Positions 3,971 through 59,160 of a stretch of 64,000 nt of DNA are shown in pieces. The stretch is from Heptranchias perlo (lineage: Eukaryota): contig NW_027139217.1 in assembly GCF_035084215.1 (NCBI RefSeq), positions 310,001 to 374,000 on the forward strand. The letters run 5' to 3'. The number at the start of each line of letters is the position of its first letter. Position 1 is the stretch's first letter. The notes beneath the pieces were generated by a model. The model saw only the letters and a list, made by a program, of their open reading frames with translations. It was not told the DNA's origin and searched no databases. A program made the position numbers and the translations under genes.

Positions 3971-3997
3971 TCTCTCTGTCACTTTCTGCAACAAACT

Positions 3998-4010
3998 ACT
4001 TTCAGTTCCT
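3998..4010 (-). promoter_or_regulatory. ISRE / Ets-IRF composite-like element (AGGAACTGAAAGT)
   Basis: Matches GGAAnnGAAA on the - strand, about 35 bp upstream of the X box. Confidence 0.5.
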
Positions 4011-4022
4011 TGTTTAATGATC

Positions 4023-4086
4023 AAATCCTGTTCAGTTCATTCTCCCTGGCAACTGAACATGTACCGAGCAGTATTTCTCTGATTGG
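4023..4086 (+). promoter_or_regulatory. MHC S-X-Y enhanceosome-like module
   Basis: X1/RFX-like CCTGGCAACTGAAC (4045-4058) and Y box CTGATTGG (4079-4086) are 20 bp apart, the canonical MHC X-Y spacing. A weak S-like AAATCCT sits at 4023-4029 and a second CTGATTGG at 4183-4190. Confidence 0.6.
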
Positions 4087-4234
4087 ACGGTTCAGGATAT
4101 TTGGACAGTTTATTTTTACACCGACACAAACTCTCTGGGACTACTCTGGCCGGAGTTTGCTGATTCACAGGCTGCTTTCATTCTGATTGGGCACAAACTG
4201 ACTGTCGAAGCAAACAACATGGAGGTGACTGAGT

Positions 4235-5480
4235 GAGAGGGAGAGACCAGGGGGTACAGTGTTAGCACAGGGACAGAGAGAGGGAGAGACCAGGAGGTAC
4301 AGTGTTAGCACAGGGACAGAGAGAGGGAGAGACCAGGAGGTACAGTGTTAGCACAGGGACAGAGAGAGGGAGAGACCAGGAGGTACAGTGTTAGCACAGG
4401 GACAGAGAGAGGGAGAGACCAGGAGGTACAGTGTTAGCACAGGGACAGAGAGAGGGAGAGACCAGGAGGTACAGTGTGAGCACAGGGACAGAGAGAGGGA
4501 GAGACCAGGAGGTACAGTGTTAGCACAGGGACAGAGAGAGGGAGAGACCAGGAGGTACAGTGTTAGCACAGGGACAGAGAGAGGGAGAGACCAGGAGGTA
4601 CAGTGTTAGCACAGGGACAGAGAGAGGGAGAGACCAGGAGGTACAGTGTTAGCACAGGGACAGAGAGAGGGAGAGACCAGGAGGTACAGTGTTAGCACAG
4701 GGACAGAGAGAGGGAGAGACCAGGAGGTACAGTGTTAGCACAGGGACAGAGAGAGGGAGAGACCAGGAGGTACAGTGTTAGCACAGGGACAGAGAGAGGG
4801 CGAGACCAGGAGGTACAGTGTTAGCACAGGGACAGAGAGAGGGAGAGACCAGGAGGTACAGTGTTAGCACAGGGACAGAGAGAGGGAGAGACCAGGAGGT
4901 ACAGTGTTAGCACAGGGACAGAGAGAGGGAGAGACCAGGAGGTACAGTGTTAGCACAGGGACAGAGAGAGGGAGAGACCAGGAGGTACAGTGTTAGCACA
5001 GGGACAGAGAGAGGGAGAGACCAGGAGGTACAGTGTTAGCACAGGGACAGAGAGAGGGCGAGACCAGGAGGTACAGTGTTCGCACAGGGACAGAGGGAGG
5101 GAGAGACCAGGAGGTACAGTGTGAGCACAGGGACAGAGAGAGGGAGAGACCAGGAGGTACAGTGTTAGCACAGGGACAGAGAGAGGGAGAGACCAGGAGG
5201 TACAGTGTTAGCACAGGGACAGAGAGAGGGAGAGACCAGTAGGTACAGTGTTAGCACAGGGACAGAGAGAGGGAGGGACCAGGAGGTACAGTGTTAGCAC
5301 AGGGACAGAGAGAGGGAGAGACCAGGAGGTACAGTGTTAGCACAGGGACAGAGAGAGGGAGAGACCAGGAGGTACAGTGTTAGCACAGGGACAGAGAGAG
5401 GGAGAGACCAGGAGGTACAGTGTTAGCACAGGGACAGAGAGAGGGAGAGACCAGGAGGTACAGTGTTAGCACAGGGACAG
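4235..5480. repeat. 43-bp minisatellite between the SXY module and the MHC-I leader exon
   Basis: Near-perfect tandem gagagggagagaccaggaggtacagtgttagcacagggacaga, about 29 units. Confidence 0.95.
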
Positions 5481-5500
5481 AGGAGACCGTCTCCTGGAAA

Positions 5501-5510
5501 AGGATTTCCC
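5501..5510 (-). promoter_or_regulatory. NF-kB-like site (GGGAAATCCT)
   Basis: aggatttccc lies about 40 bp upstream of the MHC-I ATG; one mismatch to GGGRNNYYCC. Confidence 0.35.
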
Positions 5511-5547
5511 ACAAACTGCTCATCCCAGCCTGTCGAGGGAAGCAGCA

Positions 5548-5596
5548 ATGATTGGACTGATAGTTCTGGTCGTTCTGTGTGGAGGGGTCTCTGCAG
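5548..5596 (+). CDS. MHC-I copy 1 exon 1 (signal peptide MIGLIVLVVLCGGVSA)
   Basis: gcaATG start, hydrophobic leader, donor G|gtgagt. Confidence 0.85.
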
Positions 5597-8500
5597 GTGA
5601 GTAATGGGGTCTGAGAGGGGCTCAGTGCCAGGCTGGGTCTGTCAGGGGGTGTGTTACCCCAGGCCCTTCTCCCTCAGTCCCTCAGTGGGTGTGTTACCCC
5701 AGGCCCATCTCCCTCAGTCTGTCAGTGGGTGTGTTACCCCAGGCCCCTCTCCCTCAGTCCCTCAGTGGGTGTGTTACCCCAGGCCCCTCTCCCTCAGTCT
5801 GTCAGTGGGTGTGTTACCCCAGGCCCCTCTCCCTCAGTCTGTCAGGGGGTGTGTTACCCCAGGCCCCTCTCGCTCAGTCTGTCAGTGGGTGTGTTACCCC
5901 AGGCCCCTCTCCCTCAGTCTGTCAGTGGGTGTGTTACCCCAGGCCCCTCTCCCTCAGTCTGTCAGTGGGTGTGTTACCCCAGGTACCACTCCCTCAGTCT
6001 GTCAGGGGGTGTGTTACCCCCGGCCCCTCTCCCTCAGTCTGTCAGGGGGTGTGTTACCCCAGGCCCCTCTCCCTCAGTCTGTCAGTGGGTGTGTTACCCC
6101 AGGTACCACTCCCTCAGTCTGTCAGGGGGTGTGTTACCCCCGGCCCCTCTCCCTCAGTCTGTCAGGGGGTGTGATACCCCAGGCCCCTCTCCCTCAGCCT
6201 GTGTTGTGTTGATGTGGAGATGCCGGTGATGGACTGGGGTTGACAATTGTAAACAATTTTACAACACCAAGTTATAGTCCAGCAATTTTATTTTAAATTC
6301 ACAAGCTTTCGGAGACTTCCTCCTTCCTCAGGTAAATGTTCAGGGACTCTGTGTTGTGTTGGGGATTATTTACAGGGAGTCTGTGTTATTTTGTTGGTTC
6401 ATGCCCTGATCTCTCTCTCTCTCTCTCTCTGGGGTTGGTGTTTTGGGGTTGGTGTTTTGGGGTTCATGCCCTGATCTCTCTCTCTCTGGGGTTGGTGTTT
6501 TGGGGTTCATGCCCTGATCTCTCTCTCTCTCTGGGGTTGGTGTTTTGGGGTTCATGCCCTGATCTCTCTCTCTCTGGGGTTGGTGTTTTGGGGTTCATGC
6601 CCTGATCTCTCTCTCTCTGGGGTTGGTGTTTTGGGGTTCATGCCCTGATCTCTCTCTGGGGTTGGTGTTTTGGGGTTCATGCCCTGATCTCTCTCTCTCT
6701 GGGGTTGGTGTTTTGGGGTTCATGCCCTGATCTCTCTCTCTCTGGGGTTGGTGTTTTGGGGTTCATGCCCTGATCTCTCTCTCTCTGGGGTTGGTGTTTT
6801 GGGGTTCATGCCCTGATCTCTCTCTCTGGGGTTGGTGTTTTGGGGTTCATGCCCTGATCTCTCTCTCTGGGGTTGGTGTTTTGGGGTTCATGCCCTGATC
6901 TCTCTCTCTCTGGGGTTGATGTTTTGGGGTTCATGCCCTGATCTCTCTCTCTCTCTGTTTCAGGCTCTCACTCTCTCCGGTATTTTCTGACCGCAATGAC
7001 CCCGATCCCTGGTCTGCCGCAGTTTGTTGCTGTCGGATATGTGGACGAGGCCCAGTTTGTGATGTACGACAGCAAGCGGAGGGAGTTGATCCCACGGCTG
7101 TGGTGGATGGAGGAGAGGGAGGGGCCCGAGAACTGGGAGCGGAAGAAACAGCTGGTGCGAGGCGAGGAACAGTGGATGAAGGATTATATTCAGATCCTCC
7201 TGACCCGGACCAACCAGTCGGTCGGTGAGTTCACTCCCTCCCAACGCACTCGGGCTCTTCCTGCGGAGTCAGGGGGCGGAGAGCGGGGTCAGGGAGCGGG
7301 GAGCGGGGAGCGGGGTCAGGGAGCGGGGTCAGGGAGCGGGGAGCGGGGTCAGGGAGCGGGGAGCGGGGTCAGGGAGCGGGGAGCGGGGTCAGGGAGCGGG
7401 GAGCGGGGTCAGGGAGCGTGTCGGGGAGCAGGGTCGGGGCGGGGAGCGGGGTCAGGGGTCGTGGTCGGGGAGCGGGGTCGGGGCGGGGTCAGGGGTCAGG
7501 GAGCTGGGGCGGGGAGATGGGTCGGGGAGTGGGGTCGGGGTGGGGAGCGGCGTCAGGGGGCGGGGAGTGGGGTCAGGGGGCATGGAGTGGGGTCAGGGAG
7601 TGAGGTCAGAGGCAGGGAGCGGGGTCAGGGAGCGGGGTCAGGGGGCGGGTAGTGGGTCAGGGAGCGAGGTCAGGGTGCAGGGAGCGAGGTCAGGGGGCAG
7701 GGAGCGGGGTCAGGGGGCGGGGAGTGGGGTCAGGGGGCATGGAGCGGGGTCAGGGAGCGAGGTCAGGGGGCAGGGAGCGGGGTCAGGGGGCAGGGAGCGG
7801 GGTCAGGGGGCGGGGCCAGGGGTTGACATGCGATATTCTGACGGTCATGGACTCGGACCAACCAGTCGGGCGGTGAGTCCTCGGCCTCAAACCGCACTCG
7901 GGCTGATCCCGGGGTCAGGAGTGGGCAGGGCTGCTCCCCCTGGAAGTGAGGAAGTTCCACCCCCTCCCCCACTGTGTGACATAAGAACATAAGAAATAGG
8001 AGCAGGAGTAGGCCATCCGGCCCCTCGAGCCTGCTCCGCCATTCATAGAATCATAGAATTATAGAATCGTAGAAAATTTATGGCACAGAAGGAGGCCATT
8101 CGACCCATCGTGTCCGTGCCGGCCAAAAATGTGCCACCCAGCCTAATCCCACTTTCCAGCACTTGGTCCGTAGCCCTGTAGGTTATGGCACTTCAGGAGC
8201 ACATCCAGGTACTTTTTAAATGAGTTGAGGGTTTCTGCCTCTCCCACCCTCTCAGGCGGTGAGTTCCAGACCCCCACCACCCTCTGGGTGAAAAAAATTC
8301 TCCTCAGCTCCCCTCTAATCCTTCTACCAATTACTTTAAATCCATGCCCCCTGGGCATTGACCTCTCTGCTAAGGGAAATAGATCCTTGCCCCTCATAAT
8401 TTTATACACCGGGGAACATAGGAACATAGGAACAGGAGTAGGCCATTCAGCCCCTCGAGCCTGCTCCACCATTTGATAAGATCATGGCTGATCTGTGATC

Positions 8501-11500
8501 TCACTCCATATACCTGCCTTTGGCCCATATCCCTTAATACCTTTGGTTGCCAAAAAGCTATCCATCTCAGATTTAAAATTAGCAATTGAGCTAGTATCAA
8601 TTGCCGTTTGCAAAAGAGAGTTCCAAACTTCTACCACCCTTTGTGTGTAGAAATGTTTTCTAATCTCACTCCTGAAAGGTCTGGCTCTAATTTTTAGACT
8701 GTGCCCCCGACTCCTAGAATCCCCAACCAGCGGAAATAGTTTCTCTCTATCCACCCTATCTGTTCCTTTTAATATCTTATAAACTTCGATCAGATCACCC
8801 CTTAACCTTCGAAACTCTAGAGAATACAACCCCAATTTGTGTAATCTCTCCTCGTAACTTAACCCTTGAAGTCCGGGTATCATTCTAGTAAACCTACGCT
8901 GCACTGCCTCCAAGGCCAATATGTCCTTCCGAAGGTGCGGTGCCCAGAACTGCTCACAGTACCTCAATTAAATCTCCCCTCAGCCTCCTTTGTTCAAAAG
9001 AAAACAACCCCAGCCCATCCAATCTTTCCTCATAGCTAAAATTCTCCAGTCCTGGCAACATCCTCGCAAATCTCCTCTGTACCCTCTCTAGTGCAATCAC
9101 ATCTTTCCTGTAATGTGGTGACCAGAACTGTACACAGTACTCAAGCTGTGGCCTAACCAATGTTTTATACAGTTCCAGCATAACCTCCCTGCACTTATAT
9201 TCGATGCCTTGGCCTAATAAAGGAAAGTATTCCATCTGCCTTCTTAACCACCTTATCTGTCCTGCTACCTCGGGGATCTGTGGACATGCACTCCAAGGTC
9301 CCTCTCTTCCTCGACACCTCTCAGTATCCTCCCATTTATTGTGTGCTCCCTTGCCTTGTTTGCCCTCCCCAAAGGCATTACCTCACACTTCTCTGGATTG
9401 AATTCCATTTGTCACTTTTCTGCCCACCTGACCAGTCCATTGATATCTTCCTGCAGTCTACAGCTTTCCTCCTCACTATCAACCGCACGGTCAATTTTTG
9501 TATCATCTGCAAACTTCTTAATCATGGCCCTACATTTAAGTCCAAATCATTAATATATATCAAAAAAAGCAAGAGACCCAGTATCGAGCCTTGTGGAACC
9601 CCACTGGAAACAGCCTTCCAGTCACAAAAACACCCGTCGACCATTTCCCTTTGCTTCCTGCCACTGAGCCAATTTTGGATACAATTTGCCACTTTCCCTT
9701 GGATCCCATGAGCTTGTACTTTTTTGACCAGTCTGCCATGTGGGACCTTGTCAAAAGCCTTGCTAAAATCCATGTATTCTACATCAAACGCACTACCCTC
9801 ATCGACCCTCCTTGTTACCTCCTCAAAAAATTCAATCAAGTTGGTCAGACATGACCTTCCCTTAACAAATCCATGCTGACTGTCCTTGATTAACCCGTGC
9901 CTTTCTAAGTGACGGTTTATCCTGTCCCTCACAATTGATACCAATAATTTGCCCACCACTGAGGTTAGACTGACTGGCCTATAATTACTCGGTCTCTCTC
10001 TTTCTCCCTTTTTAAACAACAGTAGAACGTTAGCAGTCCTCCAATCCTCCGGCATCACGCCTGTATCCAGGGAGGATTGGAAAATGATGGTCAGAGCCTC
10101 CGCTATTTCCTCTCTTGCTTCTTTCAACAACCTGGGATACATTTCATCCGGGCCTGGTGATTTGTTTACTTTCAAAGATGCGAATCCCCTTAATATTTCC
10201 TCTCTCACTGTTTATCCCATCCAATATTTCACACTCCTCCTCCTTAACTACAATCTCTGCATCGTCCCTCTCCTTTGTGAAGACAGACGCAAAGTATTCA
10301 TTAAGAACCAGACCCACATCTTCCCCCTCCACACACAGGTTACCTTTTTGGTCTCAATCAGATCATGACTGATCTTCGACCTCAACTCCACTTTGCCGCC
10401 CGATCCCAATATCCCTTGTTTCCATCCCAGCCTTGAATATATTCAATGACTGACCATCCACAGCTCTCTGGGGGAGAGAATTCCAAAGATTCACAGCCCT
10501 CTGAGTGAAGAAATTCCTCCTCATCTCAGTCTTGAATGGCCGACCCCGAATCCTGCGACAATGCCCCCAAGTTCTAGACTCTCACAGGGGAAACAATCTC
10601 TCAGCATCTACACTGTCAAACTCCCTCTACTCCCCACCCCCCCCGCAGCCCATGTCTCTCTATTCCCCCTGTGTCTCTCTATTCCCCCCCCGTGTCTCTC
10701 TATTCCCCCCCCGTGTCTCTCTATTCCCCCCCGTGTCTCTCTATTCCCCCCCGTGTCTCTCTATTCCCCCCCCGTGTCTCTCTATTCCCCCCCCGTGTCT
10801 CTCTATTCCCCCCCCCCGTGTCTCTCTATTCCCCCCCCCGTGTCTCTCTATTCCCCCCCCCGTGTCTCTCTATTCCCCCACCCCGTGAAGTTAAGAAACA
10901 CTTCGACACTCAAAGGGTGGGAGAAGTTTGGAAACTCTCCTCCGCAAATGGCAGTTGGTGCGAGCTCAATTCGTAATTTTAAATCTGAGATTGATAGATT
11001 TTTGTTCACCAAAGATATTAAGGGATGTGGGGCTAAGGCGGGGAAATGGACTGAGGTCACAGATCAACCATGATCTCATCGAATGGCGGAACAGGCTCGA
11101 GGGGCCAAATGGCCTCGTCCTGTTCCTTTGTTCCTGTAATAAAGTTTCAATACTCTACAGGGAGTGGGCTGGTTTAGTTGACAGGCAACAGCAAGGGCAC
11201 TGGCGAAGTGGCAGGGATGGGACAGGAGTGCTGTCATCCTGAGAGTGGACACTCGGTTCATGTTCCATGGAGCCACTGCCACTTGTTGTCTCCTGTTATG
11301 CACCACCTTCTCCTGCAAGAAAGCGGGACGTGTGTCGGTGAGTGTCCTGCAAGATGTTTGGGTGATGAGCCTGTCATGGTTGAATAGCTAGTGCGTGTGG
11401 CCTGTGTGTTGTGGGTGGGTGGCTTGCAGCAGTGGTAATGTGTGAGGGTGAGAGGAAGCTTCTGGTGCGAAGAGTTGAGTACTGATGGAAAGAGTTTGTT

Positions 11501-14500
11501 GGTATGTGGGTGATGGGGGTGTCGTGTGTGGGGCAGTTGGTTGGAGACACCACTTGACAGTTGACCTCACTCACCTTGACCACTCATGTCAGAGCATTGA
11601 ACTTCTTCCTGCACTGCGTCCATGTTCATGATGCTGTGGGCCTGGCATTGACTTTGTCCCCCGCTGCCTTGGGAGCATATATCTGGAGGGCCTCTTGACC
11701 CCCCGCGGATATAGGATGTCCCTCCTTCTGTCCACCTCTTGCACCAAGGCCTCTCGTGCATCATCAGAGAACCTTGGTGCTCGCAGTCTCACAGGCCTGG
11801 TACCAACTCAGATCGGCAGATTGGTGAGGTCTGACCTGCAGATTGGAGGATGTGGGATTTAGTAGTGTGCAACCTTTATTCAATGTTTTAACATAACTCA
11901 ACAGTTTGTAAACATAGGGAGGGGACCTGTATCTGTGTTTTACGTGTGCGATGTCTGATCTCCGTTCAGACTCTGTCCGAACCCGTATCTTATATTTTGC
12001 AAATATCAGAGTCCCTCAAACGTTGAGCAGCCCAGTTGTTGCTCATTAAAAATTCCACAGTTCCCATCATCATCGTGTTTCACGATATTGCAGCACAGAT
12101 TCACTTCACCATTGACTTCCTCCACTTCCTGCAGACACACTGCACCTTCCCTTTAAGAGGTGCAGGCTGCCTTTAAGTGGTGCGAGCCACTCGTGATATC
12201 TGGGCCCCTGCTGGTGAGCAGCCACTCACAGTGCAGGGAATGCTGGCTGGACGCAGCAATCAGGTAAATCACCAGGCAGCACGAATGTTACGTTCTTCCC
12301 ACATCTCACCGACCGGGCACGGGTTCATCACGACCCGTGGAAGTGGTTTTCTCGGGCGGACCGAAAACACACCTCTTACTATAAGTTCAGGAACGATCGG
12401 GACACTCGCTGGGAGCACGGGGGGTCCTTTAAATACACAGATTGTGGTCCAGGGGGTCCTTTAAATATATAGATTGAGGTTCGGGGGTCCTTTAAATACA
12501 CTGATCGGGGTCCGGGGGGTCCTTTAAATACACTGATCGGGGTCCGGTGGGGGGGGTCCTTAAATACCCAGGCCGGGGTCCGGGGGTCCTTTAAATACAC
12601 TGATCGGGGTCCGGGGGGTCCTTTAAATACACTGATCGGGGTCCGGGGGATCCTTTAAATACACTGATCGGGGTCCGGGGGGGTCCTTTAAATACACTGA
12701 TCGGGGTCCGGGGGGTCCTTTAAATACACAGATCGGGGTCCGGGGATCCTTTAAATACACTGATCGTGGTCCGGGGGGTCCTTTAAATACACAGATCGGG
12801 GTCCGGGGATCCTTTAAATACACTGATCGTGGTCCGGGGATCCTTTAAATACACAGATCGGGGTCCGGGGGTCCTTTAAATACACAGATCGGGGTCCGGG
12901 GGTCCTTTAAATACACAGATCGGGGTCCGGGGGTCCTTTAAATACACTGATCGGGGTCCGGGGATCCTTTAAATACACTGATCGGGGTCCGGTGGGGGGG
13001 GGTCCTTAAATACCCAGGCCGGGGTCCAGGGGTCCTTTAAATACACTGATCGGGCTCCAGGGATCCTTAAAATACACTGATCGGGGTCCGGGGGATCCTT
13101 TAAATACACTGATCGGGGTCCGGGGGGTCCTTTAAATACACAGATCGTGGTCCGGGGGTACTTTAAATACACTGATCGGGGTCCGGGGGGTCCTTTAAAT
13201 ACACAGATCGTGGTCCGGGGGTCCTTTAAATACACTGATCGGGGTCCGGGGGGTCCTTTAAATACACTGATCGGGGTCCGGGGGTCGTTTAAATACACTG
13301 ATCGGGGTCCGGGGGTCCTTTAAATACACTGATCGGGGTCCAGGGGTCCTTTAAATATACTGATCGGGGTCCGGGGGGTCCTTTAAATACACTGATCGGG
13401 GTCCGGGGGTCATTTAAATACACAGATCGGGGTCCGGGGGTCCTTTAAATACACTGATCGGGTTCCGGGGGTCCTTTAAATATACTGATCGTGGTCCGGG
13501 GGGTCCTTTAAATACACTGATCGGGGTCCGGAGGGTCCTTTAAATACACTGATCGGGGTCCGGGGGGTCCTTTAAATACACTGATCGGGGTCCGGGGGTC
13601 CTTTAAATACACTGATCGGGGTCCCGGGGTCCTTTAAATACACTGATCGGGGTCCGGGGGTCCTTTAAATACACTGATCGGGGTCCGGGGATCCTTTAAA
13701 TACACTGATCGGGGTCCGGGGGATCCTTTAAATACACTGATCGGGGTCCGGGGGTCCTTTAAATACACTGATCGGGGTCCGGGGGTCCTTTAAATACACT
13801 GATCGGGGTCCGGGGATCCTTTAAATACACTGATCGGGGTCCGGGGGGTCCTTTAAATACACTGATCAGGGTCCGGGGGTCCTTTAAATACACTGGTTGG
13901 GGTCCGGGGGTCCTTTAAATACACTGATTGTCTCCGTAACCCATCTGCCCACTTCCCCCCTCCCCCCACCCCCGGCTTCCCAGGTGATTTCCGACTGTGA
14001 GCTGGGTGGTGATGGGATGGTGGACGGGGTCTCGGACTGGGTCTGACTGACCCCCTGTGTTTGATTGACAGGAATCCACATGATCCAGCAGATGACCGGC
14101 TGTGATCTGGGGGATGATGGGATCACCAGTGGGTTCTTTCAGTACGCCTGGGACGGGGAGGATTTCATCAACTTCGACAGGGATCAGATGGTGTGGGTAA
14201 CACCGGTACAGTGGGGAGAGATCACCAAGAACAAGTGGGACCAGGACACGCCCCGGAACCAAGGGGTGAAGGGATACCTGGAGGGGGAGTGCATCGAGTG
14301 GCTGAGGAAATACCTGGAGTACGGAGAGAGGGAACTGAGGGCCGGTGAGTGAGGGGGGAGTGAGAGTCGGTGAGTGAGGGGGGACTGAGAGTCGGTGGGT
14401 GAGGGGGGGAGTGAGAGTCAGTGAATGAGGGGGGACTGAGAGTCGGTGAGTGAAGGGGGGGACTGAGAGTCGGTGAGTGAGGGGGGAGTGAGAGTCGGTG

Positions 14501-17500
14501 AGTGAGGGGACGAGTGAGAGTCGGTGAGTGGGGGGGGGGAGTGAGAGTCGGTGAGTGAAGGGGGGACTGAGAGTCGGTGAGTGATGGGACGAGTGAGAGT
14601 CGGTGAGTGAGGGGAGGAGTGAGAGTCGGTGAGTGAGGGGAGGAGTGAGAGTCGGGGAGTGAGGGGAGGAGTGAGAGTCGGTGAGTGAGGGGGGGAGTGA
14701 GAGTCGGTGAGTGAGGGGAGGAGTGAGAGTCGGGGAGTGAGGGGAGGAGTGAGAGTCGGTGAGTGAGGGGGGGGAGTGAGAGTCGGGGAGTGAGGGAGGG
14801 GACAGAGTCGGTGAGTGAGGGGGGAGTGAGAGTCGGTGAGTGATGGGACGAGTGAGAGTCGGGGAGTGAAGGGAGGAGTGAGAGTCGGTGAGTGAAGGGG
14901 GGGACTGAGAGTCGGTGAGTGATGGGACGAGTGAGAGTCGGTGAGTGAGGGGAGGAGTGAGAGTCGGTGAGTGAGGGGAGGAGTGAGAGTCGGGGAGTGA
15001 GGGGAGGAGTGAGAGTCGGTGAGTGAGGGGGGGAGTGAGAGTCGGTGAGTGAGGGGAGGAGTGAGAGTCGGGGAGTGAGGGGAGGAGTGAGAGTCGGTGA
15101 GTGAGGGGGGGGAGTGAGAGTCGGGGAGTGAGGGGGGAGTGAGAGTCGGTGAGTGATGGGACGAGTGAGAGTCGGTGAGTGAGGGGAGGAGTGAGAGTCG
15201 GTGAGTGAGGGGAGGAGTGAGAGTCGGGGAGTGAGGGGAGGAGTGAGAGTCGGTGAGTGAGGGGGGGAGTGAGAGTCGGTGAGTGAGGGGAGGAGTGAGA
15301 GTCGGGGAGTGAGGGGAGGAGTGAGAGTCGGTGAGTGAGGGGGGGAGTGAGAGTCGGGGAGTGAGGGAGGGGACTGAGAGTCGGTGAGTGAGGGGGGAGT
15401 GAGAGTCGGTGAGTGAGGGGGGGAATGGGGTCTAATCCCCAGTTTAAAGGGGTTTGTCCCGTTCCCTGGGGTCTAATCCCCAGTTTAAAGGAGTTTGTAC
15501 CATTCCCTGGGGTCTAATCCCCAGTTTAAAGGGGTTTGTCCCGTTCCCTGGGGTCTAATCCCCAGTTTAAAGGGGTTTGTCCCGTTCCCTGGGGTCTAAT
15601 CCCCAGTTTAAAGGGGTTTGCACCGTTCCCTGTCTCACACTGACTCGGCTCTGATCTGTTTTACTCTCAGTTACTCCCCAAGTGTTTCTTTCTGTGGACA
15701 AGGCCTCAGACACTAAACCGGCCCAACTCTCCTGCCTGGTCACGGGGTTTTACCCTCGAGATATCGAACTCACCCTCCTGAGAAATGGACGGCCGATCTC
15801 AGACACTGATTCCACTGGCATCCTGCCCAACCACGATGGCACCTACCAGATCAAGAGATGGGTTGAGATCGGGCCCGAGGACGGAGCCACCTACTCCTGT
15901 CAGGTGGATCACAGCAGCAAAGCAGGAGTGGAGACCCGAGACTGGGGTAAGAGGATCAGTGAGTGCAGGGGGAGAGTCTGAGGCTGAGGATTAAAGATGT
16001 TTCTATCGCCTCTCCTCATTCTTCCTTCGAAAATACATCACTTCACACTTCTCTGTGTTAAATTTCATCTGCCATGTGTCTGCCCATTTCACCAGTCTGT
16101 CTGTGTCCTCCTGAACTCTGTTACTATCCTCCACATTGTTTACTACATTTCCGAGTTTCGTGTCAGCTGCAAACTTTGAAATTATACCCTCTATACCTGT
16201 GACGGGGAAATTTTATTCAGAAATACAAGAGATTTCCAAACCTGCCTGTCTATAATGAGCAGCACCATATATCTGGGTTACACTGAGTTATTGACTGGCT
16301 GGGATCTGTGTGTCAGGTGAAGGAGGCCGTTCGTCCATTGAACTCCTCAACCTTCCATAGAAAGGCCGTATCACCCATCACTATACTTCCACCAGCCGAC
16401 TCTGAGACTGTGCTGGGGATTCCTCACTTGTGGAGGGGACTAGTAATGACTTTGGACTGATGGGTAATTCCAATATCTGCAGACAAGCAACAACTTGTAT
16501 TTATAAAGTGCCTTTAATGGAGAGAAACGTCCCAAAGTGCTTCCCAGGAGTGGAATCAAAGCCACGCTGAACTTTCTAACCTCCAACTTGCTCTGATCAG
16601 ACTGCCCATCACATCGCAGACTCGAATCGAACTCAGTCTCAGGCACAGCTTTGGTCTCATTACTTCCTAATCAGCAGCGACTGTCGTTATTCATTTCTCT
16701 CCTCCTTATTCCCCCCACAGATGGGACGTTCCGAGTGACTCCGGGATCTTCAGAGGGACCGAATCTGGGTTTAATTGTTGGAATTGTTCTTGCTGCCGTC
16801 GCCCTGATTGCTCTCGTCATTGGTGCCGTTGTCTGGAAGAAGAGAGGTAGGAAATGAGGACAGGATCTGTCCCACACGGGGATGAGCAGGTTCAAATGTT
16901 ACAGCACAAATGGCAGAACATTAGAGACTTCCCATCGACATGTGGGAAACTCCGACACAGTCCAGTGATGGACAGGGCCCCGTACGGGGAGTGAAGGGAC
17001 CGGGGCCCATACAGGGAGTGAAGGGACCGGGGCCCCGTACGGGGAGTGAAGGGACCGGGGCCCCGTACGGGGAGTGAAGGGACCGGGGCCCCGTACGGGG
17101 AGTGAAGGGACCGGGGCCCCGTACGGGGAGTGAAGGGACCGGGGCCCCGTACGGGGAGTGAAGGGACCGGGGCCCCGTACGGGGAGTGAAGGGACCGGGG
17201 CCCCGTACGGGGAGTGAAGGGACCGGGGCCCCGTACGGGGAGTGAAGGGACCGGGGCCCCGTACGGGGAGTGAAGGGACCGGGGCCCCGTACGGGGAGTG
17301 AAGGGACCGGGGCCCCGTACGGGGAGTGAAGGGACCGGGGCCCCGTACGGGGAGTGAAGGGACCGGGGCCCCGTACGGGGAGTGAAGGGACCGGGGCCCC
17401 GTACGGGGAGTGAAGGGACCGGGGCCCCGTACGGGGAGTGAAGGGACCGGGGCCCCGTACGGGGAGTGAAGGGACCGGGGCCCCGTACGGGGAGTGAAGG

Positions 17501-20500
17501 GACCGGGGCCCCGTACGGGGAGTGAAGGGACCGGGGCCCCGTACGGGGAGTGAAGGGACTGGGCCTGATTGGGGAGTGAAGGGACCGGGTGAAGAGAGGA
17601 TATTGTCCGATGCCTGTTTCTCAGTGAGCCTCCTGTGAGTGCCCACAGGGAAATCTGGTCATTGCCCCTGTTTCTGGAGTAAGTTTGTGTCGGCGAGGGG
17701 CTGTGCTGATCGAGGAGCTGTTTGTAACTGAAGTTCCGTCTGTTTCTGTCTCTTGTAGGAGGAGAGAAAAAATCTGGTTACAGCCCAGCAAATCGTAAGT
17801 GTGCAAATAGTGCAAGGGTGGGTGTGTCTGTGGGTGTCTCTGTCTGTCTGTGTGTGTCTCTGTCTGTGTGCGTCTCTGTGTGTGTCTCTCTGTGCATCTT
17901 TATCTATGTGTGTGTGTGTGTCCCTCTCTCTCTCTCTCTGAGTGTGTGTCTCTCTCTGTGTGTCTCTCTCTCTCTCTCTCTGAGTGTGTGTCTCTTTGTG
18001 CCTCTCGCTCTCTTTGTGCCCCTCTCTCTCTGCGTGCGCCTCTCTTTCTCTCTGTGTGCCACTCTCTCTCTCTGCGTGCGCCTCTCTTTCTCTCTGCGTG
18101 CGCCTCTCTCTCTCTCTGTGTGCGCCTCCCTTTCTCTCTGTGTGCGCCTCTCTCTCTCTGTGTCCGCCTCTCTTTCTCTCTGTGTGTGCCTCTCTTTCTC
18201 TCTGTGTGCGCCTCTCTCTCTCTCTCTGTGTCCGCCTCGCTCTCTCTCTGTGTCCGCCTCTCTTTCTCTCTGCGTGCGCCTCTCTTTCTCTCTGTGTGCC
18301 TCTCTCTCTCTCTGCGTGCGCCTCTCTTTCTCTCTGCGTGCGCCTCTCTCTCTCTCTGTGTGCGCCTCCCTTTCTCTCTGTGTGCGCCTCTCTCTCTCTG
18401 TGTCCGCCTCTCTTTCTCTCTGTGTGTGCCTCTCTTTCTCTCTGTGTGCGCCTCTCTCTCTCTCTCTGTGTCCGCCTCTCTCTCTCTCTGTGTCCGCCTC
18501 TCTTTCTCTCTGTGTGTGCCTCTCTTTCTCTCTGTGTGTGCCTCTCTCTCTCTTTGTGCCCCTCTCTCTCTGCGTGCGCCTCTCTCTCTCTCTGCGTGCC
18601 CCTCTCTCTCTGCGTGCGCCTCTCTCTCTCTCTGCGTGCGCCTCTCTCTCTCTCTGCGTGCGCCTCTCTCTCTCTCTGTGTGCGCCTCTCTCTCTGTGTG
18701 TGCGCCTATCTTTCTCTCTGTGTGCGCCTCTCTCTCTCTCTGTGTGCGCCTCTCTCTCTCTCTGTGTGCGCCTCTCTCTCTCTCTGTGTGCGCCTCTCTC
18801 TCCCTCTGCGTGCGCCTCTCTCTCTCTCTGTGCGCCTCTCTCTCTCTCTGTGTGCGCCTCTCTTTCTCTCTGTGTGCGCCTCTCTTTCTCCCTGTGTGCG
18901 CCTCTCTTTCTCTCTGTGTGCGCCTCTCTTTCTCTCTGTGTGTGCCTCTCTCTCTCTTTGTGCCCCTCTCTCTCTGCGTGCGCCTCTCTCTCTCTCTGCG
19001 TGCCCCTCTCTCTCTGCGTGCGCCTCTCTCTCTCTCTGCGTGCGCCTCTCTCTCTCTCTGCGTGCGCCTCTCTCTCTCTCTGTGTGCGCCTCTCTCTCTG
19101 TGTGCGCCTCTCTCTCTCTCTGTGTGCGCCTCTCTCTCTCTCTGCGTGCCCCTCTCTCTCTGCGTGCGCCTCTCTCTCTCTCTGCGTGCGCCTCTCTCTC
19201 TCTCTGCGTGCGCCTCTCTCTCTCTCTGCGTGCGCCTCTCTCTCTCTCTGCGTGCGCCTCTCTCTCTGTGTGTGCGCCTATCTTTCTCTCTGCGTGCGCC
19301 TCTCTCTCTCTCTGCGTGCGCCTCTCTCTCTCTGTGTGCGCCTCTCTCTCTGTGTGCGCCTCTCTCTCCCTCTGCGTGCGCCTCTCTCTCTCTCTCTGTG
19401 CGCCTCTCTCTCTCTCTGTGTGCGCCTCTCTTTCTCTCTGCGTGCGCCTCTCTCTCTGCGTGCGCCTCTCTCTGCGTGCGCATCTCTTTCTCTCTGTGTG
19501 CGCCTCTCTCTCTGTGCGCCTCTCTCTCTCTCTCTCTGCGTGCGCCTCTCTCTCTCTCTCTCTGCGTGCACCTCCCTCTCTGCGTGCGCATCTCTTTCTC
19601 TCTGCGTGCGCCTCTCTCTCTGTGCGCCTCTCTCTCTCTCTCTGCGTGCGCCTCTCTCTCTCTCTCTCTGCGTGCGCCTCTCTCTATCTCTCTGTGTGCG
19701 CCTCTCTCTCTCTCTGTGTGCGCCTCTCTCTCTCTCTGTGTGCGCCTCTCTTTCTCTCTGTGTGCGCCTCTCTTTCTCTCTGTGTGCGCCTCTCTCTCTC
19801 TGCGTGCGCCTCTCTCTCTCTCTGCGTGCACCTCTCTTTCTCTCTGCGCGCGCCTCTCTTTCTCTCTGTGTGCGCCTCTCTTTCCCTCTGTGTGCGTCTC
19901 TCTCTCTCTGTGTGCGCCTCTCTTTCCCTCTGTGTGCGCCTCTCTCTCTCTCTGCGTGCGCCTCTCTTTCCCTCTGTGTGCGCCTCTCTCTCTCTGCGTG
20001 CGCCTCTCTCTCTCTGCGTGCGCCTCTCTTTCCCTCTGTGTGCGCCTCTCTCTCTCTGTGTGCGCCTCTCTCTCTCTGTGTGCGCCTCTCTTTCTCTCTG
20101 TGTGCGCCTCTCTCTCTCTCTGTGTGCGCCTCTCTCTCTCTGTGTGCGCCTCTCTTTCTCTCTGTGTGCGCCTCTCTCTCTCTGCGTGCGCCTCTCTCTC
20201 TCTGTGTGCGCCTCTCTTTCTCTCTGTGTGCGCCTCTCTCTCTCTCTGTGTGCGCCTCTCTCTCTCTGCGTGCGCCTCTCTCTCTCTGTGTGCGCCTCTC
20301 TCTCTCTGTGTGCGCCTCTCTTTCTCTCTGTGTGCGCCTCTCTCTCTCTGCGTGCGCCTCTCTCTCTCTGTGTGCGCCTCTCTCTCTCTGTGTGCGCCTC
20401 TCTCTCTCTCTGTGTGCGCCTCTCTTTCCCTCTGTGTGCGCCTCTCTCTCTCTTTGTGCCCCTCTCTTTCCCTCTGTGTGCGCCTCTCTCTCTCTGTGTG

Positions 20501-26500: not shown

Positions 26501-28835
26501 CCTCTCTTTCTCTCTGCGTGCGCCTCTCTCTCTCTCTGCGTGCGCCTCTCTCTCTCTCTGCGTGCGCCTCTCTTTCTCTCTGCGTGCGCCTCTCTTTCTC
26601 TCTGCGTGCGCCTCTCTTTCTGTCTGCGTGCGCCTCTCTTTCTCTCTGCGTGCGCCTCTCTTTCTCTCTGCGTGCGCCTCTCTGCCTCTCTGCGTGCGCC
26701 TCTCTTTCTCTCTGCGTGCGCCTCTCTTTCTCTCTGCGTGCGCCTCTCTCTTTCTCTCTGCGTGCGCCTCTCTTTCTCTCTGCGTGCGCCTCTCTTTCTG
26801 CATGCGCCTCTCTTTCTCTCTGCGTGCGCCTCTCTTTCTCTCTGCGTGCGCCTCTCTTTCTCTCTGCGTGCGCCTCTCTTTCTCTCTGCGTGCGCCTCTC
26901 TTTCTCTCTGCGTGCGCCTCTCTTTCTCTCTGCGTGCGCCTCTCTTTCTCTCTGCGTGCGCCTCTCTCATTCTCTCTGCGTGCGCCTCTCTTTCTCTCTG
27001 CGTGCGCCTCTCTCTTTCTCTCTGCGTGCGCCTCTCTTTCTCTCTGCGTGCGCCTCTCTGTCTCTCTGTGTGCGCCTCTCTTTCTTTCTGCGTGCGCCTC
27101 TCTTTCTCTCTGCGTGCGCCTCTCTTTCTCTCTGCGTGCGCCTCTCTTTCTCTCTGCGTTCGCCTCTCTCTTTCTCTCTGCGTGCGCCTCTCTCTCTCTG
27201 TGTGCGCCTCTCTCTCTCTCTGTGCGCCTCTCTTTCTCTCTGCGTGCGCCTCTCTCTCTCTCTGTGTGCGCCTCTCTTTCTCTCTGCGTGCGCCTCTCTC
27301 TCTCTGCGTGCGCCTCTCTCTCTCTCTCTGCATGCGCCTCTCTTTCTCTCTGCGTGCGCCTCTCTCTCTCTGCGTGCGCCTCTCTCTCTCTGCGTGCGCC
27401 TCTCTCTCTCTCTGCGTGCGCCTCTCTCTCTCTCTGCGTGCGCCTCTCTTTCTCTCTGCGTGCGCCTCTCTCTCTCTCTGCGTCTGCCTCTCTCTCTCTC
27501 TCTCCGTGCGCCTCTCTCTCTCTCTGCGTCTGCCTCTCTGTCTCTCTCTGCGTGTGCCTCTCTCTCTGCGTGCGCCTCTCTCTCTGCGTGCGCCTCTCTC
27601 TCTGCGTGTGCCTCTCTCTCTGCGTGCGCCTCTCTCTCTGCGTGCGCCTCTCTCTCTCTGCGTGCGCCTCTCTCTTTCTGCGTGCGCCTGTCTCTCTCTC
27701 TGCGTGCGCCTCTCTCTTTCTGCGTGCGCCTGTCTCTCTCTCTGCGTGCGCCTGTCTCTCTCTCTGCGTGCGCCTGTCTCTCTCTGCGTGCGCCTCTCTT
27801 TCTCTCTGCGTGCGCCTCTCTCTCTGCGTGCGCCTCTCTCTCTGCGTGCGCATCTCTTTCTCTCTGTGTGCGCCTCTCTCTCTGTGCGCCTCTCTCTCTC
27901 TCTCTCTGCGTGCGCCTCTCTCTCTCTCTCTCTGCGTGCGCCTCCCTCTCTGCGTGCGCATCTCTTTCTCTCTGCGTGCGCCTCTCTCTCTGTGCGCCTC
28001 TCTCTCTCTCTCTGCGTGCGCCTCTCTCTCTCTCTGCGTGCGCCTCTCTCTATCTCTCTGCGTGCGCCTCTCTCTCTCTGTCTGCGTGCGCCTCTCTCTC
28101 TGCGTGCGCCTCTCTCTCTCTCTGCGTGCGCCTCTCTCTCTCTCTCTGCGTCCGCCTCGCTCTCTCTGTCTGCGTGCGCCTCTCTCTCTCTCTGCGTGCG
28201 CCTCTCTCTCTCTCTCTGCGTGCGCCTCGCTCTCTCTCTCTGCGTGCGCCTCTCTCTGCGTGCGCCTCTCTCTCTCTCTGCGTGCGCCTCGCTCTCTCTC
28301 TCTGCGTGCGCCTCGCTCTCTCTCTCTGCGTGCGCCTCTCTCTCTCTCTCTCTGCATGCGCCTCTCTCTCTCTCTGTGTGCGCCTCTCTTTCTCTCTGCG
28401 TGCGCCTCTCTCTCTCTCTGCGTCTGCCTCTCTCTCTCTCTCTCCGTGCGCCTCTCTCTCTCTCTGCGTCTGCCTCTCTCTCTCTCTCTGCGTGCACCTC
28501 TCTCTGTCTCTCTCTGTGCCTCTCTTTCTCTTCCTCTNNNNNNNNNNNNNNNNNNNNNNNNNNNNNNNNNNNNNNNNNNNNNNNNNNNNNNNNNNNNNNN
28601 NNNNNNNNNNNNNNNNNNNNNNNNNNNNNNNNNNNNNNNNNNNNNNNNNNNNNNNNNNNNNNNNNNTCTTTATCTCTCTTTATCTCTCTCTCTCTCCCTC
28701 CCCCCTCTCTCTCTCGCTCTCTCTCTCTGTACAGAACATTCTCTGTGTTCTACAATGTCTGTTTGACAGAAATCTTTTCTTTTCACAGCTGCTGAAAGAG
28801 GAGAATCGTCCTCAAACTCATCAGCCCGAGCCTGA
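5548..28835 (+). CDS. MHC class I heavy chain, copy 1 (355 aa): join(5548..5596,6964..7224,14072..14344,15671..15946,16721..16846,17759..17794,28789..28835)
   Basis: Leader, alpha1, alpha2, alpha3, TM and two cytoplasmic exons. All introns are GT-AG phase 1. The 1068-nt spliced frame is open and ends in TGA. Confidence 0.92.
5636..6200. repeat. 40-bp minisatellite, intron 1
   Basis: Tandem gtcagtgggtgtgttaccccaggcccctctccctcagtct. Confidence 0.95.
6210..6340 (-). mobile_element. Penelope-like element terminal fragment with hammerhead-like core
   Basis: The reverse complement (ctgaggaaggaggaagtctccgaaagcttgtga...ggactataacttggtgttgtaa) is homologous to the PLE end at 43660-43740. Confidence 0.65.
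6395..6955. repeat. About 40-bp minisatellite abutting the exon-2 acceptor
   Basis: Tandem catgccctgat(ct)n ggggttggtgttttggggtt. Confidence 0.95.
6964..7224 (+). CDS. MHC-I copy 1 exon 2 (alpha1 domain)
   Basis: (G)[36 protein letters not shown]...WERK...TRTNQSV, with Y7, R84 and the N86 glycan site. Boundaries tttcag| and |gtgagt. Confidence 0.95.
7268..7815. repeat. G-rich GGGAGC/GGGGTCA low-complexity tandem repeat, intron 2
   Basis: Direct periodicity. Confidence 0.9.
7832..7905 (+). pseudogene. Relic 3' end of a second, divergent MHC-I alpha1 exon plus donor site
   Basis: gatattctgacggtcatg(g)actcggaccaaccagtcgggcg|gtgagt..cgcactcgggct parallels 7182-7257; it translates as DILTVM-TRTNQSG. 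Confidence 0.75.
7978..10620 (-). mobile_element. Cluster of nested CR1 LINE fragments (RT region 8961-10350; a second CR1 3' end inserted at about 8411-8960)
   Basis: KSPGPD, NYRPVSLTSVVGK, QHGF, MDFSKAFDKVPH and GVPQGS motifs. The host reading ttttatacacc/acctcaatt is split by the insert. Confidence 0.88.
10651..10880. repeat. About 21-bp minisatellite (cgtgtctctctattccccccc)
   Basis: Direct periodicity. Confidence 0.9.
10885..11135 (+). mobile_element. CR1 3' end fragment
   Basis: KHF.TQRVGEVW..; FKSEIDRFL; CR1-type 3' UTR. Confidence 0.7.
11180..12380 (-). mobile_element. Harbinger/PIF-derived fragment encoding a degenerate Myb/SANT-like protein
   Basis: RLRAPRFSDDAREALVQEVDRRRDILYP..; KKFNALT.VVK|gtgagt. 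Similar to 44718-45400. Confidence 0.7.
12418..13928. repeat. About 30-bp minisatellite upstream of the alpha2 exon
   Basis: Tandem ggggtcctttaaatacactgatcggggtccg. Confidence 0.95.
14072..14344 (+). CDS. MHC-I copy 1 exon 3 (alpha2 domain)
   Basis: (G)IHMIQQMTGCDL..FQYAWDGEDFI..ITKNKW..GYLEGECIEWLRKYLEYG, with C101/C164, T143, K146, W147, Y159, W167 and Y171. Confidence 0.96.
14345..15425. repeat. About 23-bp minisatellite built from the exon-3 donor site
   Basis: Units gagagtcg|gtgagtgaggggg mimic the true junction gagggccg|gtgagtgagggggg. Confidence 0.93.
15427..15632. repeat. 41-bp tandem repeat (5 units) before the alpha3 acceptor
   Basis: ggggtctaatccccagtttaaaggggtttgtcccgttccct. 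Confidence 0.93.
15671..15946 (+). CDS. MHC-I copy 1 exon 4 (alpha3, Ig C1-set)
   Basis: LSCLVTGFYPRDI...ILPNHDGTYQ...YSCQVDHSS; boundaries ctctcag| and |gtaaga. Confidence 0.96.
16010..16200 (-). mobile_element. Short CR1 RT fragment in intron 4
   Basis: The - strand reads ..W.DTWQMKFNTEKCEVMYF.RKNEE. Confidence 0.7.
16721..16846 (+). CDS. MHC-I copy 1 exon 5 (connecting peptide plus TM)
   Basis: (D)GTFRVTPGSSEGPNLGLIVGIVLAAVALIALVIGAVVWKKR; boundaries ccacag| and |gtagga. Confidence 0.93.
16975..17590. repeat. 28-bp GC-rich minisatellite, intron 5 (about 22 units)
   Basis: gggaccggggccccgtacggggagtgaa. Confidence 0.95.
17759..17794 (+). CDS. MHC-I copy 1 exon 6 (cytoplasmic, GGEKKSGYSPAN)
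   Basis: Boundaries tcttgtag| and |gtaagt; 36 nt; carries the YxxA-type motif of class I tails. Confidence 0.85.
17820..28730. repeat. About 11-kb compound (TC)n/TGCGTGCGCC microsatellite filling intron 6
   Basis: Direct observation; source of the spurious ORFs of more than 3500 aa. Confidence 0.97.
28538..28666. other. Assembly gap (N run)
   Basis: 129 Ns. Confidence 0.99.
28789..28835 (+). CDS. MHC-I copy 1 exon 7 (PAERGESSSNSSARA*)
   Basis: Acceptor ttttcttttcacag|; Ser-rich terminal tail in the correct phase. Confidence 0.8.
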
Positions 28836-29869
28836 GGTACGAAGCCAATCACTTGAGTTTAACAGCAGCTGAACGAGCAGCAAACCAGGTTGTGAAGAGC
28901 AGTAACTGTGGGCTCAGGGGGTCGGGAGGGAGCTGCTTATATCTGACTGGACTGAGTCTCCTCACTGGAACGCTGCTTTTTCACTTAATGTTTGTCGAGA
29001 TTTCTCACTGAGTGAAACCCTGATTCCAGAACACAGTCTGTAAAAGACACAACCCCCAGGGGTGAAGTGGAATTCCTTTGACAGTCACGGTCCACCATTG
29101 ATCAACTGGGGTTTAATACATCGCAGATCTGGCAATACGAGCTTTTTTTGTGGGAAGGAAGAGTTTTTTTGAACCCATCATCAGTGTGAATCAGGCCCAG
29201 GTGAGGTCAGGGAGAGAGTAAAGCTTCTCTCTGACCCCAGGAATCACCTGGTGACCTCTTGTTCTATTAAAGGTGCCTGAGCTGCTGCAGCATCCACTTC
29301 CCTTCAGCTAACAAACTGAAGGTCCAATCGTTCTGGGCCATCGTCAGGCCGAGGCTTTAAGTGAATATGTTGGGGGAGTGAGGAGGGAATTCCAGACGTC
29401 TGGCTGGGTTGTGGAGGTTAATATTCCTGGCAGCAGTGGAATGAATTAATTTAAACAGGGAGAACTGGAGGTTTCGAAACCAGGACTGGTGAGCAACAAA
29501 CTTCTGGGTCCCGTCAGCTGCTCAGTGAGACCCTGCAGCTGTTTAATATACTGGAGGATGGAATCTGTCACCTTGAGAGGGGGAGCTGGTTGTGCTGAGG
29601 ATTTGAGGATGGGGATTATACCTCACCTAGGACCCTGGGCCTTAGACTGACACATTGTGCAGTGTACCTTGTGACACTATGCTGGAACACTCGGTCTTCT
29701 CTGAGATCTGGTGCTCCTGGAGAGGTTTGATGGGAAGGATTGTGTCCTGGGCTGGGCTGGCCGTGTTCACTCACATTGCTGCAATCTTTACTTGTGTCTG
29801 TAGGGGGCCTGTCCCGTGGCACCTGGAACGGCCACCAATGGTGGGGTGAAGGGAGTGGGGGTGGACAAG

Positions 29870-58855: not shown

Positions 58856-59160
58856 GGCTGGAAATTGGGCCGTGTCGCGCACGTTGTTTCAGCGTGACAC
58901 GGCCTCCTGAAGTGACAAGATGGCGCCTTGGCTGCGCACGCACGTTTCCAGCGTGACGTGTGCCGGACGCCACCTTGGTATAGGTATTAGCGCAGGCGCA
59001 AATATCGAACGCCGGCAGCATTTAAAGTAAGGAGAAAATGGATCCAATCAGCGTGGGATTTAGTAGTGCGCAACCTTAATTCAATCTGTTAACGTAACTC
59101 AGCAGTTTTTAAACATAGGGACGGGACCTGCATCTGTGTTTTACGTGTGTGAAGTCTGAG
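58856..59160. mobile_element. Harbinger-like terminal fragment replacing the exon-7 region of copy 2
   Basis: Starts with TIR-like GGCTGGAAATTGG. Segment 59053-59160 matches the Harbinger-associated sequence at 11852-11960. Confidence 0.6.

Follow-up and report, generated by a model that had tools for sequence, protein, structure and literature searches.

A 64,000-nucleotide stretch of the genome of the deep-sea shark Heptranchias perlo (the window) contains an MHC class I heavy-chain gene, intact and spliced, whose front part carries marks of an old and likely non-classical shark lineage, UBA, and whose remainder is of the species' classical type, UAA. From the residue counts and the domain-wise trees, we consider it likely that the gene arose by recombination between the two. 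The fuller reading that we favor seems to us moderately probable: a UBA/UAA recombinant, copied in tandem, that acts as a non-classical presenter with the C-terminal end of the ligand held classically and the N-terminal pocket likely narrowed.

A spliced class I gene and its copies

The gene has seven exons and encodes 355 amino acids, and its spliced product matches the public Heptranchias perlo protein P0126 at 100%. It matches PF00129 (E 8e-53) and PF07654, and the leader, alpha1, alpha2, C1-set alpha3, transmembrane (TM) and tail regions each lie in separate exons. The features of the window are as follows.

5548..5596, + strand: leader exon, coding part from the ATG, with a GT donor; its translation is the leader of P0126, P0002 and P0014
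6964..7224, + strand: alpha1 exon, AG/GT ends
7817..7926, + strand: degenerate second alpha1 3' end and donor site in intron 2, from a local alignment
14072..14344, + strand: alpha2 exon, AG/GT ends
15671..15946, + strand: alpha3 exon; four of the five local UAA-type genes encode the same protein here
16721..16846, + strand: connecting peptide and transmembrane exon
17759..17794, + strand: first cytoplasmic exon, carrying the tyrosine
28789..28835, + strand: last cytoplasmic exon and stop codon, within the P0126 identity
59159..64000, − strand: inverted sister gene, tail to tail, with its alpha2 end near 63978
63118-62843, − strand: sister alpha3, identical to that of the window gene
from 62065, − strand: sister TM exon, one base different

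The last cytoplasmic exon gave no tblastn match; it was spotted by eye and then confirmed by the identity with P0126, and the intron before it is 11 kb long with a microsatellite and a 129-N gap inside. Intron 2 spans 6.8 kb, and the core of the alpha1 remnant within it is identical at 62 of 79 aligned bases. Upstream, a regex scan for promoter elements picked out ATTGG boxes at 4082 and 4186 and no ISRE, CRE or kB match.

Contigs of the sequencing runs X5 and X8 break at the end of the alpha1 exon (7225) and resume with 30/30 bases of 14073-14102, and the leader-alpha1 junction is present in contigs of X8. Both of the two same-species RNA-like runs thus hold spliced contigs; their RNA status rests on the exon joins, as no run is recorded as RNA, and levels and tissues are not readable from contigs. 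Spliced transcripts exist, which speaks against the gene being unexpressed. The DNA run X1 crosses the alpha1 exon-intron border in one piece. At least half of the sequence words were found in eight runs, all from one sample. Run X9 (organism B, share 0.07) contained short pieces only, with UAA-like loose ends. A chimera made by the assembly is rejected, because the spliced contigs contain the alpha1-alpha2 join.

Five related genes lie on a single scaffold; they and one UAA-type gene are assigned to contigs of the same length, 612,036 bases. Where alpha1 was compared, four of the copies agree at 96% or more (three computed, the fourth by eye), suggesting a recent spread. Among the public models, the full tail is present in the window copy alone; three of the other four stop at or just past the TM exon and one comprises alpha1-alpha2 only. 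The first cytoplasmic exon of the inverted sister, which by elimination is the gene of P0002, has a CG acceptor in place of AG, and its last exon is absent. The truncated models, the defective sister and the recent spread would all suit a decaying by-product of birth-and-death evolution, in which neighbors undergo concerted exchange and no special ligand is involved. We regard this as quite improbable: the reading frame of the window copy is open, its splice sites are canonical and it has spliced contigs, and P0126 and P0002, only 80% alike in alpha1, nevertheless have L9, A24, L45, K63, L66, V67 and T99 in common.

Groove residues of two lineages

Positions are given in what we take to be HLA numbering, anchored on N86, C101, W147 and Y159. 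The groove residues listed in the earlier note were all confirmed by codon, both in alpha1 (Y7 at 6981, N59 at 7131, K63 at 7143, W73 at 7173, Y77 at 7185 and R84 at 7206) and in alpha2 (T99 at 14095, T143 at 14224, K146 at 14233, W147 at 14236, Y159 at 14275, W167 at 14299 and Y171 at 14311). No gap is needed to align the alpha1 helix with nurse shark 6LUP or mouse H2-Ld. W73, one of the features listed earlier, turned out to be ordinary, being shared with 6LUP, H2-Ld, 6/49 UAA-side rows of the alignment, 3/30 Triakis alleles and the Heptranchias UAA-type P0131.

N59 and K63 fall outside classical variation. Y59 is found in 30/30 Triakis alleles and 46/49 UAA-side rows. K63 occurs in 35 of the 37 rows of a shark and ray clade that we take to be UBA (with nurse shark AAC60347, Gici-11, and horn shark AAC60348, Hefr-20, as its references), and in 0/49 UAA-side rows. 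N59, K63, L66, Y77 and T99 are each absent from the 30 Triakis alleles, and neither N59 nor K63 appears in the five UAA-type sequences of the species, contrary to the possibility that they are common in its classical alleles. N59 is rare among UBA-type rows as well (1/37). K63 occurs together with E163 in 31/37 UBA-type rows, and the window gene also has E163. Where classical class Ia chains carry Y59, D/E/Q/N63 and D/N/S77 as anchors, the window gene carries N59, K63 and Y77. According to PMC8236899, the hydrogen-bond network at P1 includes (D/E/Q)63 and Y59, residue 77, usually D/N/S, makes a hydrogen bond to the peptide backbone, and W167 blocks the P1 end of the groove.

The UBA-type residues are unevenly placed. 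The alpha1 exon has L9, M35, L45, K63, L66, Y77 and a non-Y59 residue in a frame that is otherwise partly local UAA; the first ~20 codons of the alpha2 exon have T99, D102 and S110, and the rest of that exon is UAA-type. Shark UBA shares with the window gene K63, L66, L45, T99, D102, E163, the lack of Y59, the alpha1 tree position and the multicopy cluster, which in UBA is flanked by c4 and rxrb (PMC10751288). Bartl 1997 is cited for UBA in PMC12562908. UBA rows differ from the window gene in having mostly I143 (30/37), never T143-K146-W147 (0/37, against 40/49 UAA-side rows), and a short type of alpha3 that is 46-60% identical over 36 rows; in the window gene, alpha2 is mostly UAA-type, and alpha3, TM and tail are entirely so. 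With classical UAA (Gici-UAA*01 6LUP, Triakis, P0014, P0128, P0129 and P0131) the gene shares Y7, R84, T143, K146, W147, Y159, W167, Y171 and the fold, and its alpha3 protein is identical to those of the four local genes. However, the classical class Ia gene is described in PMC10751288 as a single gene in tight linkage with TAP1/2 and PSMB8/9, whereas the window type exists as several near-identical copies.

The groove is thus a hybrid, as had been proposed, with UBA-type front residues and a UAA-type alpha2 bulk. The accompanying idea that the A pocket was remodeled within the classical lineage did not hold up: K63, the loss of Y59, L66, L45, Y77 and T99 appear, from their distribution among sequences, to be inherited marks of an old multicopy shark/ray clade. 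What is new is the mix of a UBA front and a UAA back and not the A-pocket residues themselves.

Trees and residue counts

A domain-wise phylogeny, as suggested earlier, separated the two parts of the gene, with no AU test significant, these tests being short of power. In the alpha1 tree (100/107 rows), P0126 and P0002 stand as sister to the 37-row UBA-type clade, outside its crown, with support of 99/94; a 38-row set gives 99/97 for this placement. In the alpha2 tree (75/110 rows), a 100/97 split puts P0126 on the UAA side, where its grouping with the local UAA-type P0014/P0129 has 95/91. A UBA grouping of alpha2 and alpha3 is therefore not found by trees or identity, the alpha2 AU test alone leaving it unrejected (chimeras and UBA as one alpha2 clade, p=0.362). 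A single clade of all Heptranchias alpha1 (p=0.121) and a placement of the window alpha1 with squalomorph UAA-type sequences (p=0.061) were likewise unrejected; the alpha3 AU test (p=0.065) is void because identical rows stood on both sides.

Residue counts showed the same division, with the cut at position 107 picked after the data were seen. At positions 1-107, the window gene has 11 of 22 UBA-private residues, compared with 2-3 in local UAA-type genes, 0-5 in the 49 other UAA-side rows and 5-20 in UBA rows. At positions 108-178 it has 2/13, the same as local UAA-type genes, the UBA median being 8. Differences from all five local UAA-type genes are denser before this post hoc cut (26/107 vs 5/71, Fisher p=0.0025), and the UBA-type share among them is 11/26 vs 0/5 (p=0.13). 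Whole-alpha1 identity cannot tell the parents apart (64-69% with the local UAA-type genes and 47-68% with UBA), and the UBA-like F32, E55, R169, E173 and Y174 are also present in local UAA-type genes.

These data bear on whether a classical duplicate could have remodeled its own A pocket, with no other lineage involved, so that an open and basic site would accept N-extended or acidic ligands. The classical-type alpha2, alpha3, TM and tail, the alpha1 identity to local UAA-type genes with local motifs in common (alignment positions 29, 30 and 50), the surviving Heptranchias alpha1 clade, the rarity of N59 in UBA and the basic R62 and K63 are in its favor. Yet 11 of the 31 positions that differ from all local UAA-type genes carry the commonest UBA residue (four carry the commonest UAA residue); M35, K63, K64 and T99 are among these 11, and each is seen in 0/49 UAA-side rows. 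Convergence is unlikely because several of the shared residues (35, 44, 64 and 102) are presumably not groove-facing, and W167, retained here, does not fit an open site. We think such independent remodeling improbable.

We favor instead a recombination or gene conversion that would have joined UBA-lineage alpha1 and the first alpha2 strand to the rest of alpha2, alpha3, TM and tail of UAA. Tandem copying of the mosaic gene likely followed, and the alpha1 frame was probably also partly homogenized with local UAA while the groove-facing UBA residues 9, 45, 59, 63, 66, 77 and 99 were retained. Protein searches found no pure UBA parent from Heptranchias perlo. Part of the residue mix exists elsewhere: two Mustelus UBA-type proteins have K63, T143 and K146, but L147. 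The identity of alpha2/alpha3 to local UAA-type genes (75-100%, with P0018 alpha3 at 55%) argues against membership in UCA, UDA, UEA, UFA or UGA. The teleost U lineage (trout, zebrafish and medaka) likewise has recombined alpha1-alpha2 combinations and a long intron 2 (PMC6523485); however, teleosts shuffle classical alleles across intron 2, whereas the window gene mixes non-classical and classical-type lineages and appears to change from one to the other within the alpha2 exon.

The ligand pocket and its meaning

The heavy chain modeled alone takes the usual class I fold (mean pLDDT 83); its best match is 6LUP (TM 0.94 by target), and a search with a UBA-type query found no solved chain nearer than this classical one. 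R84, T143, K146 and W147 would hold the carboxyl end of the ligand. The C-terminal anchoring, earlier called intact, is so in these four residues, but not wholly classical, because position 77, normally D/N/S, is Y. Similarly, the N-terminal pocket is basic (R62 and K63), as was stated, while its openness is doubtful because W167 is retained and K63 co-occurs with E163 in most UBA-type rows.

K63 may stand in place of the acidic P1/P2 backbone contact and pair with E163 across the groove beneath W167, and L9, A24, L45, L66, V67 and T99 could form a roomier aliphatic B pocket. Together, these features would favor peptides that are short or blocked at the N-terminus by acylation; macaque Mamu-B*098, a presenter of N-myristoylated lipopeptides, is a precedent. 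In that molecule the A pocket is closed by small residues at 9, 97 and 99, a bulky 63 and a salt bridge between 66 and 163 (PMC4735555). The window gene shares with it a small 99, aliphatic 45/67, a bulky 63, an acidic 163 and the classical C-terminal network, but has L66, L9 and Q97 where Mamu-B*098 has the R66-E163 bridge, S9 and T97. The likeness is one of analogy only, and this joint picture of clamp, K63-E163 pair, B pocket and ligand is tentative.

It is also conceivable, though rather unlikely in our view, that the mosaic binds ordinary free-N-terminus peptides via Y7, Y159, W167 and Y171, with K63 setting a side-chain preference (acidic P1/P2), as a narrow presenter like HLA-E/Qa-1 or an NK ligand. 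Eight of nine usual anchor positions are classical, the sister P0002 has Y59 alongside K63, and the full tail including the tyrosine is kept. On the other hand, the P1 network members (D/E/Q)63 and Y59 are both lost, position 77 is Y, and K63 is maintained in UBA rows despite decayed F-pocket residues, which indicates a role beyond side-chain choice.

We therefore return to the UBA/UAA recombinant, predicted to function as a non-classical presenter. The earlier view of a non-classical derivative of a classical-like lineage is probably right as to non-classical, but the marks of the front half belong to another, UBA-type clade. No UBA/UAA mosaic was reported in the open literature searched, the main shark class I papers lying outside that scope, so the residue pattern of UBA may have been published already. 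The finding suggests sequence exchange between classical and non-classical shark lineages, an exchange proposed to be held back around the classical gene in PMC10751288, which also describes shark non-classical class I lineages as of unknown function. A natural mosaic of this kind would set the UBA N-terminal pocket apart, on a C-terminal clamp of classical type, and so be a ready-made construct for probing the role of K63. More speculatively, and with small probability, hexanchiforms may have swapped their UBA genes for a selected mosaic that combines a K63(-E163) gate, ancient and retained across sharks and rays, with the classical clamp, tail and alpha3 and presents N-blocked peptides or lipopeptides, or a carbonyl ligand bound to K63 in the manner of MR1. 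If true, a non-classical pocket would have been grafted onto a classical peptide-loading chassis, and this replacement would give a first handle on the ligands of shark UBA molecules.

Gene structure, copies and transcript evidence

The MHC class I gene in the window has seven exons on the + strand, whose joined frame of 1068 bases encodes 355 amino acids. Its features and those nearby are:

5548-5596, + strand: leader exon
6964-7224, + strand: alpha1 exon
7817-7926, in intron 2: decayed 3' end of an alpha1 exon with donor site (62/79 bases identical)
14072-14344, + strand: alpha2 exon
15671-15946, + strand: alpha3 exon
16721-16846, + strand: TM exon
17759-17794 and 28789-28835, + strand: tail exons
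59159-64000, - strand: inverted sister gene, alpha3 identical to the window copy

The spliced product is identical to P0126 (XP_067834114.1) of Heptranchias perlo, a hexanchiform shark, and Pfam reports MHC_I and C1-set. An AlphaFold2 model from an 83-row alignment has the usual class I chain fold, with a mean pLDDT of 83, and its best PDB match is the nurse shark structure 6LUP (TM 0.94 by target). The alpha1 remnant in intron 2 could be an exchange scar or a partial duplication. The intron at 17795-28788 spans 11 kb of nearly pure CT/GT microsatellite with a 129-N gap (28538-28666); in the inverted sister it measures ~1 kb up to the divergence point. Two ATTGG boxes (4082, 4186) lie ~1.4 kb 5' of the leader exon, and a ~40-base tandem repeat stands between them and that exon (region 3990-5547).

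Five genes of the window type (six proteins) and one UAA-type gene are apparently on the same contig. All five window-type genes encode K63 and four encode N59, while the sister protein P0002 has Y59 and Q84. Among the public models of these five, only the window copy has a full tail and three are tail-less. The inverted sister is 97% identical to the window gene over 14809-17589, and the 3' flanks of the two copies agree at 99.2% over 2.2 kb (29048-31230 vs 58855-56670). Judged by its alpha2 end and TM sequence, it is the P0002 gene. With CG in place of the acceptor of its first tail exon, and with its last exon missing, it ends by TM read-through. The Heptranchias UAA-type proteins P0014, P0128, P0129, P0131 and P0018 are five different sequences on five contigs, by their number more than one diploid locus if the assembly represents one animal. 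Public models P0001, P0025 and P0026 (Mustelus, Pristis, Hypanus) each hold two class I units and are probably fused annotations of tandem genes.

No run is catalogued as RNA; of the four examined, X5 and X8 are presumed to be RNA and share with the DNA run X1 a sample that may be the assembly source. In contigs of both, cover is lost at the end of the alpha1 exon and the sequence runs on with the opening 30 bases of alpha2; in X8 contigs the leader is joined as well. An X5 contig spanning 6967-7225 differs at one base only, silently and just as X1 does, and it therefore encodes the alpha1 of the window copy.

A front with UBA-type residues and a UAA-type back

Comparison sequences came from protein searches, and all counts are among the matches listed. 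Of 107 rows, 100 went into the alpha1 tree, the others being five near-duplicates and two short sequences; the alpha2 tree used 75 of 110. Residues were counted in 37 UBA-type and 49 other elasmobranch (UAA-side) rows, apart from 7 rows that were very divergent or not from sharks, 4 near-duplicates, proteins P0066 and P0093, and the Heptranchias rows. One clade of the alpha1 tree (37 rows, 100/94) consists of multicopy genes from sharks and rays, among them AAC60347 of nurse shark and AAC60348 of horn shark; we call it UBA. These two accessions are presumably Gici-11 and Hefr-20. A review citing Bartl 1997 describes UBA as an expanded family derived from UAA (PMC12562908), and another paper ties Gici-11 to Bartl 1997 (PMC1513397).

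The window protein and P0002 join this clade at 99/94, and five other Heptranchias genes form a separate clade on the classical side. Several residues of the window protein are commoner in UBA than on the UAA side: K63 (35/37 vs 0/49), L66 (34/37 vs 1/49), L45 (35/37 vs 5/49), T99 (22/37 vs 0/49) and Y77 (13/37 vs 1/49). Y59, present in 46/49 UAA-side rows, is not among the six commonest states in UBA, where A or S is usual and N59 is rare (1/37).

In the alpha2 tree, the window protein groups with local UAA-type P0014 and P0129 (95/91), opposite UBA across a 100/97 split, and its alpha3 is shared without a difference by all but one of the five UAA-type genes of the species. The T143-K146-W147 triad occurs in 40/49 other rows vs 0/37 UBA rows, and in none of 13 further K63 proteins. 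Two of these 13, UBA-type Mustelus P0209 and P0214, combine K63 with T143-K146-L147, a partial parallel. Among 35 UBA-private sites, divided post hoc at alignment position 107, the window protein has 11 of the 22 in positions 1-107, compared with 2-3 for local UAA-type genes, 5-20 for UBA rows (not scored leave-one-out) and 0-5 for the 49 other rows (leave-one-out); past position 107 it has 2 of 13, equal to local UAA-type genes. Because T99, D102 and S110 are its last UBA-type residues, the change of type appears to fall within alpha2 rather than between exons.

AU tests on 87-92 columns did not reject a single Heptranchias alpha1 clade (p=0.121), mosaics with UBA in alpha2 (0.362) or the window alpha1 with squalomorph UAA-type genes (0.061); a fourth, on alpha3 (0.065), is void. 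The window alpha1 is similarly identical to both putative parents. Since its alpha1 frame is partly common to local UAA-type genes, which themselves carry a few UBA-like residues, UBA/UAA exchange probably ran in both directions and in patches, not as a single crossover. No pure UBA protein from Heptranchias perlo was among the annotated proteins listed as matches, at most 120 per search.

Stegostoma P0093, with a UAA-side alpha1, a UBA-side alpha2, a long-type alpha3 and long branches, is possibly another mosaic. Two alpha3 types occur in sharks (covering window 15671-15946 and proteins P0029, P0011, P0028, P0017, P0022, P0023, P0031, P0033 and P0093). The type longer by four residues, a 99/95 clade, is found in Squalus, Pristiophorus, Heptranchias UAA-type and some galeomorph genes; galeomorph and ray UAA, and UBA, have the short one. 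Heptranchias has both, P0018 being short.

Groove residues and predicted ligands

In HLA numbering, every residue named in an earlier note is confirmed in the alpha1 and alpha2 codons. The 30 Triakis class I proteins, which we take to be classical alleles, do not vary at Y59 or at the eight anchors that the window gene keeps, and none of them (0/30) has N59, K63, L66, Y77 or T99. The "bulky" W73 and Y77 are both present, but W73 is ordinary, being found in 6LUP, mouse H2-Ld, 3/30 Triakis proteins and 6/49 UAA-side rows.

According to PMC8236899, the P1 network comprises Y7, Y59, (D/E/Q)63, Y159 and Y171, with W167 blocking that end, and the C-terminal peptide end is held by (D/N/S)77, 84, 143, 146 and 147. 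The claim of intact C-terminal anchoring thus holds for the classical clamp at 84/143/146/147 but not for position 77, which is Y. The N-terminal pocket, described as open, has lost two network members (Y59 and 63) but keeps W167.

A K63-E163 ion pair across the groove is plausible, since the two co-occur in 31/37 UBA rows and E163 is present in the window protein. In Mamu-B*098, the A pocket is closed, and a myristoyl chain accommodated, by a bulky residue 63, a bridge between 66 and 163 and a floor of small residues (PMC4735555, PMC9243169); L9, A24, L45, L66, V67 and T99 of the window protein, with K63/E163, are reminiscent of that pocket. Because of this likeness the groove would take short or N-blocked ligands in preference to N-extended ones, a doubtful preference to which ordinary peptides with acidic P1/P2 are a close rival. 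The protein is predicted to work like a class Ib presenter of peptides or lipopeptides.

The window protein lacks the full set of UAA anchors and differs from UBA in alpha2/alpha3, and the gene is therefore filed under neither lineage. PMC10751288 reports multicopy UBA and unpublished Ia-like genes; we found no comparable mosaic in the sections consulted, nor a UBA/UAA one in the open literature searched. UBA pocket residues may already be tabulated in Almeida 2020 and 2021. Shuffling of alpha1 and alpha2 was already known in teleosts (PMC6523485); what is new, as far as we found, is a likely UBA/UAA mosaic in a shark class I gene.
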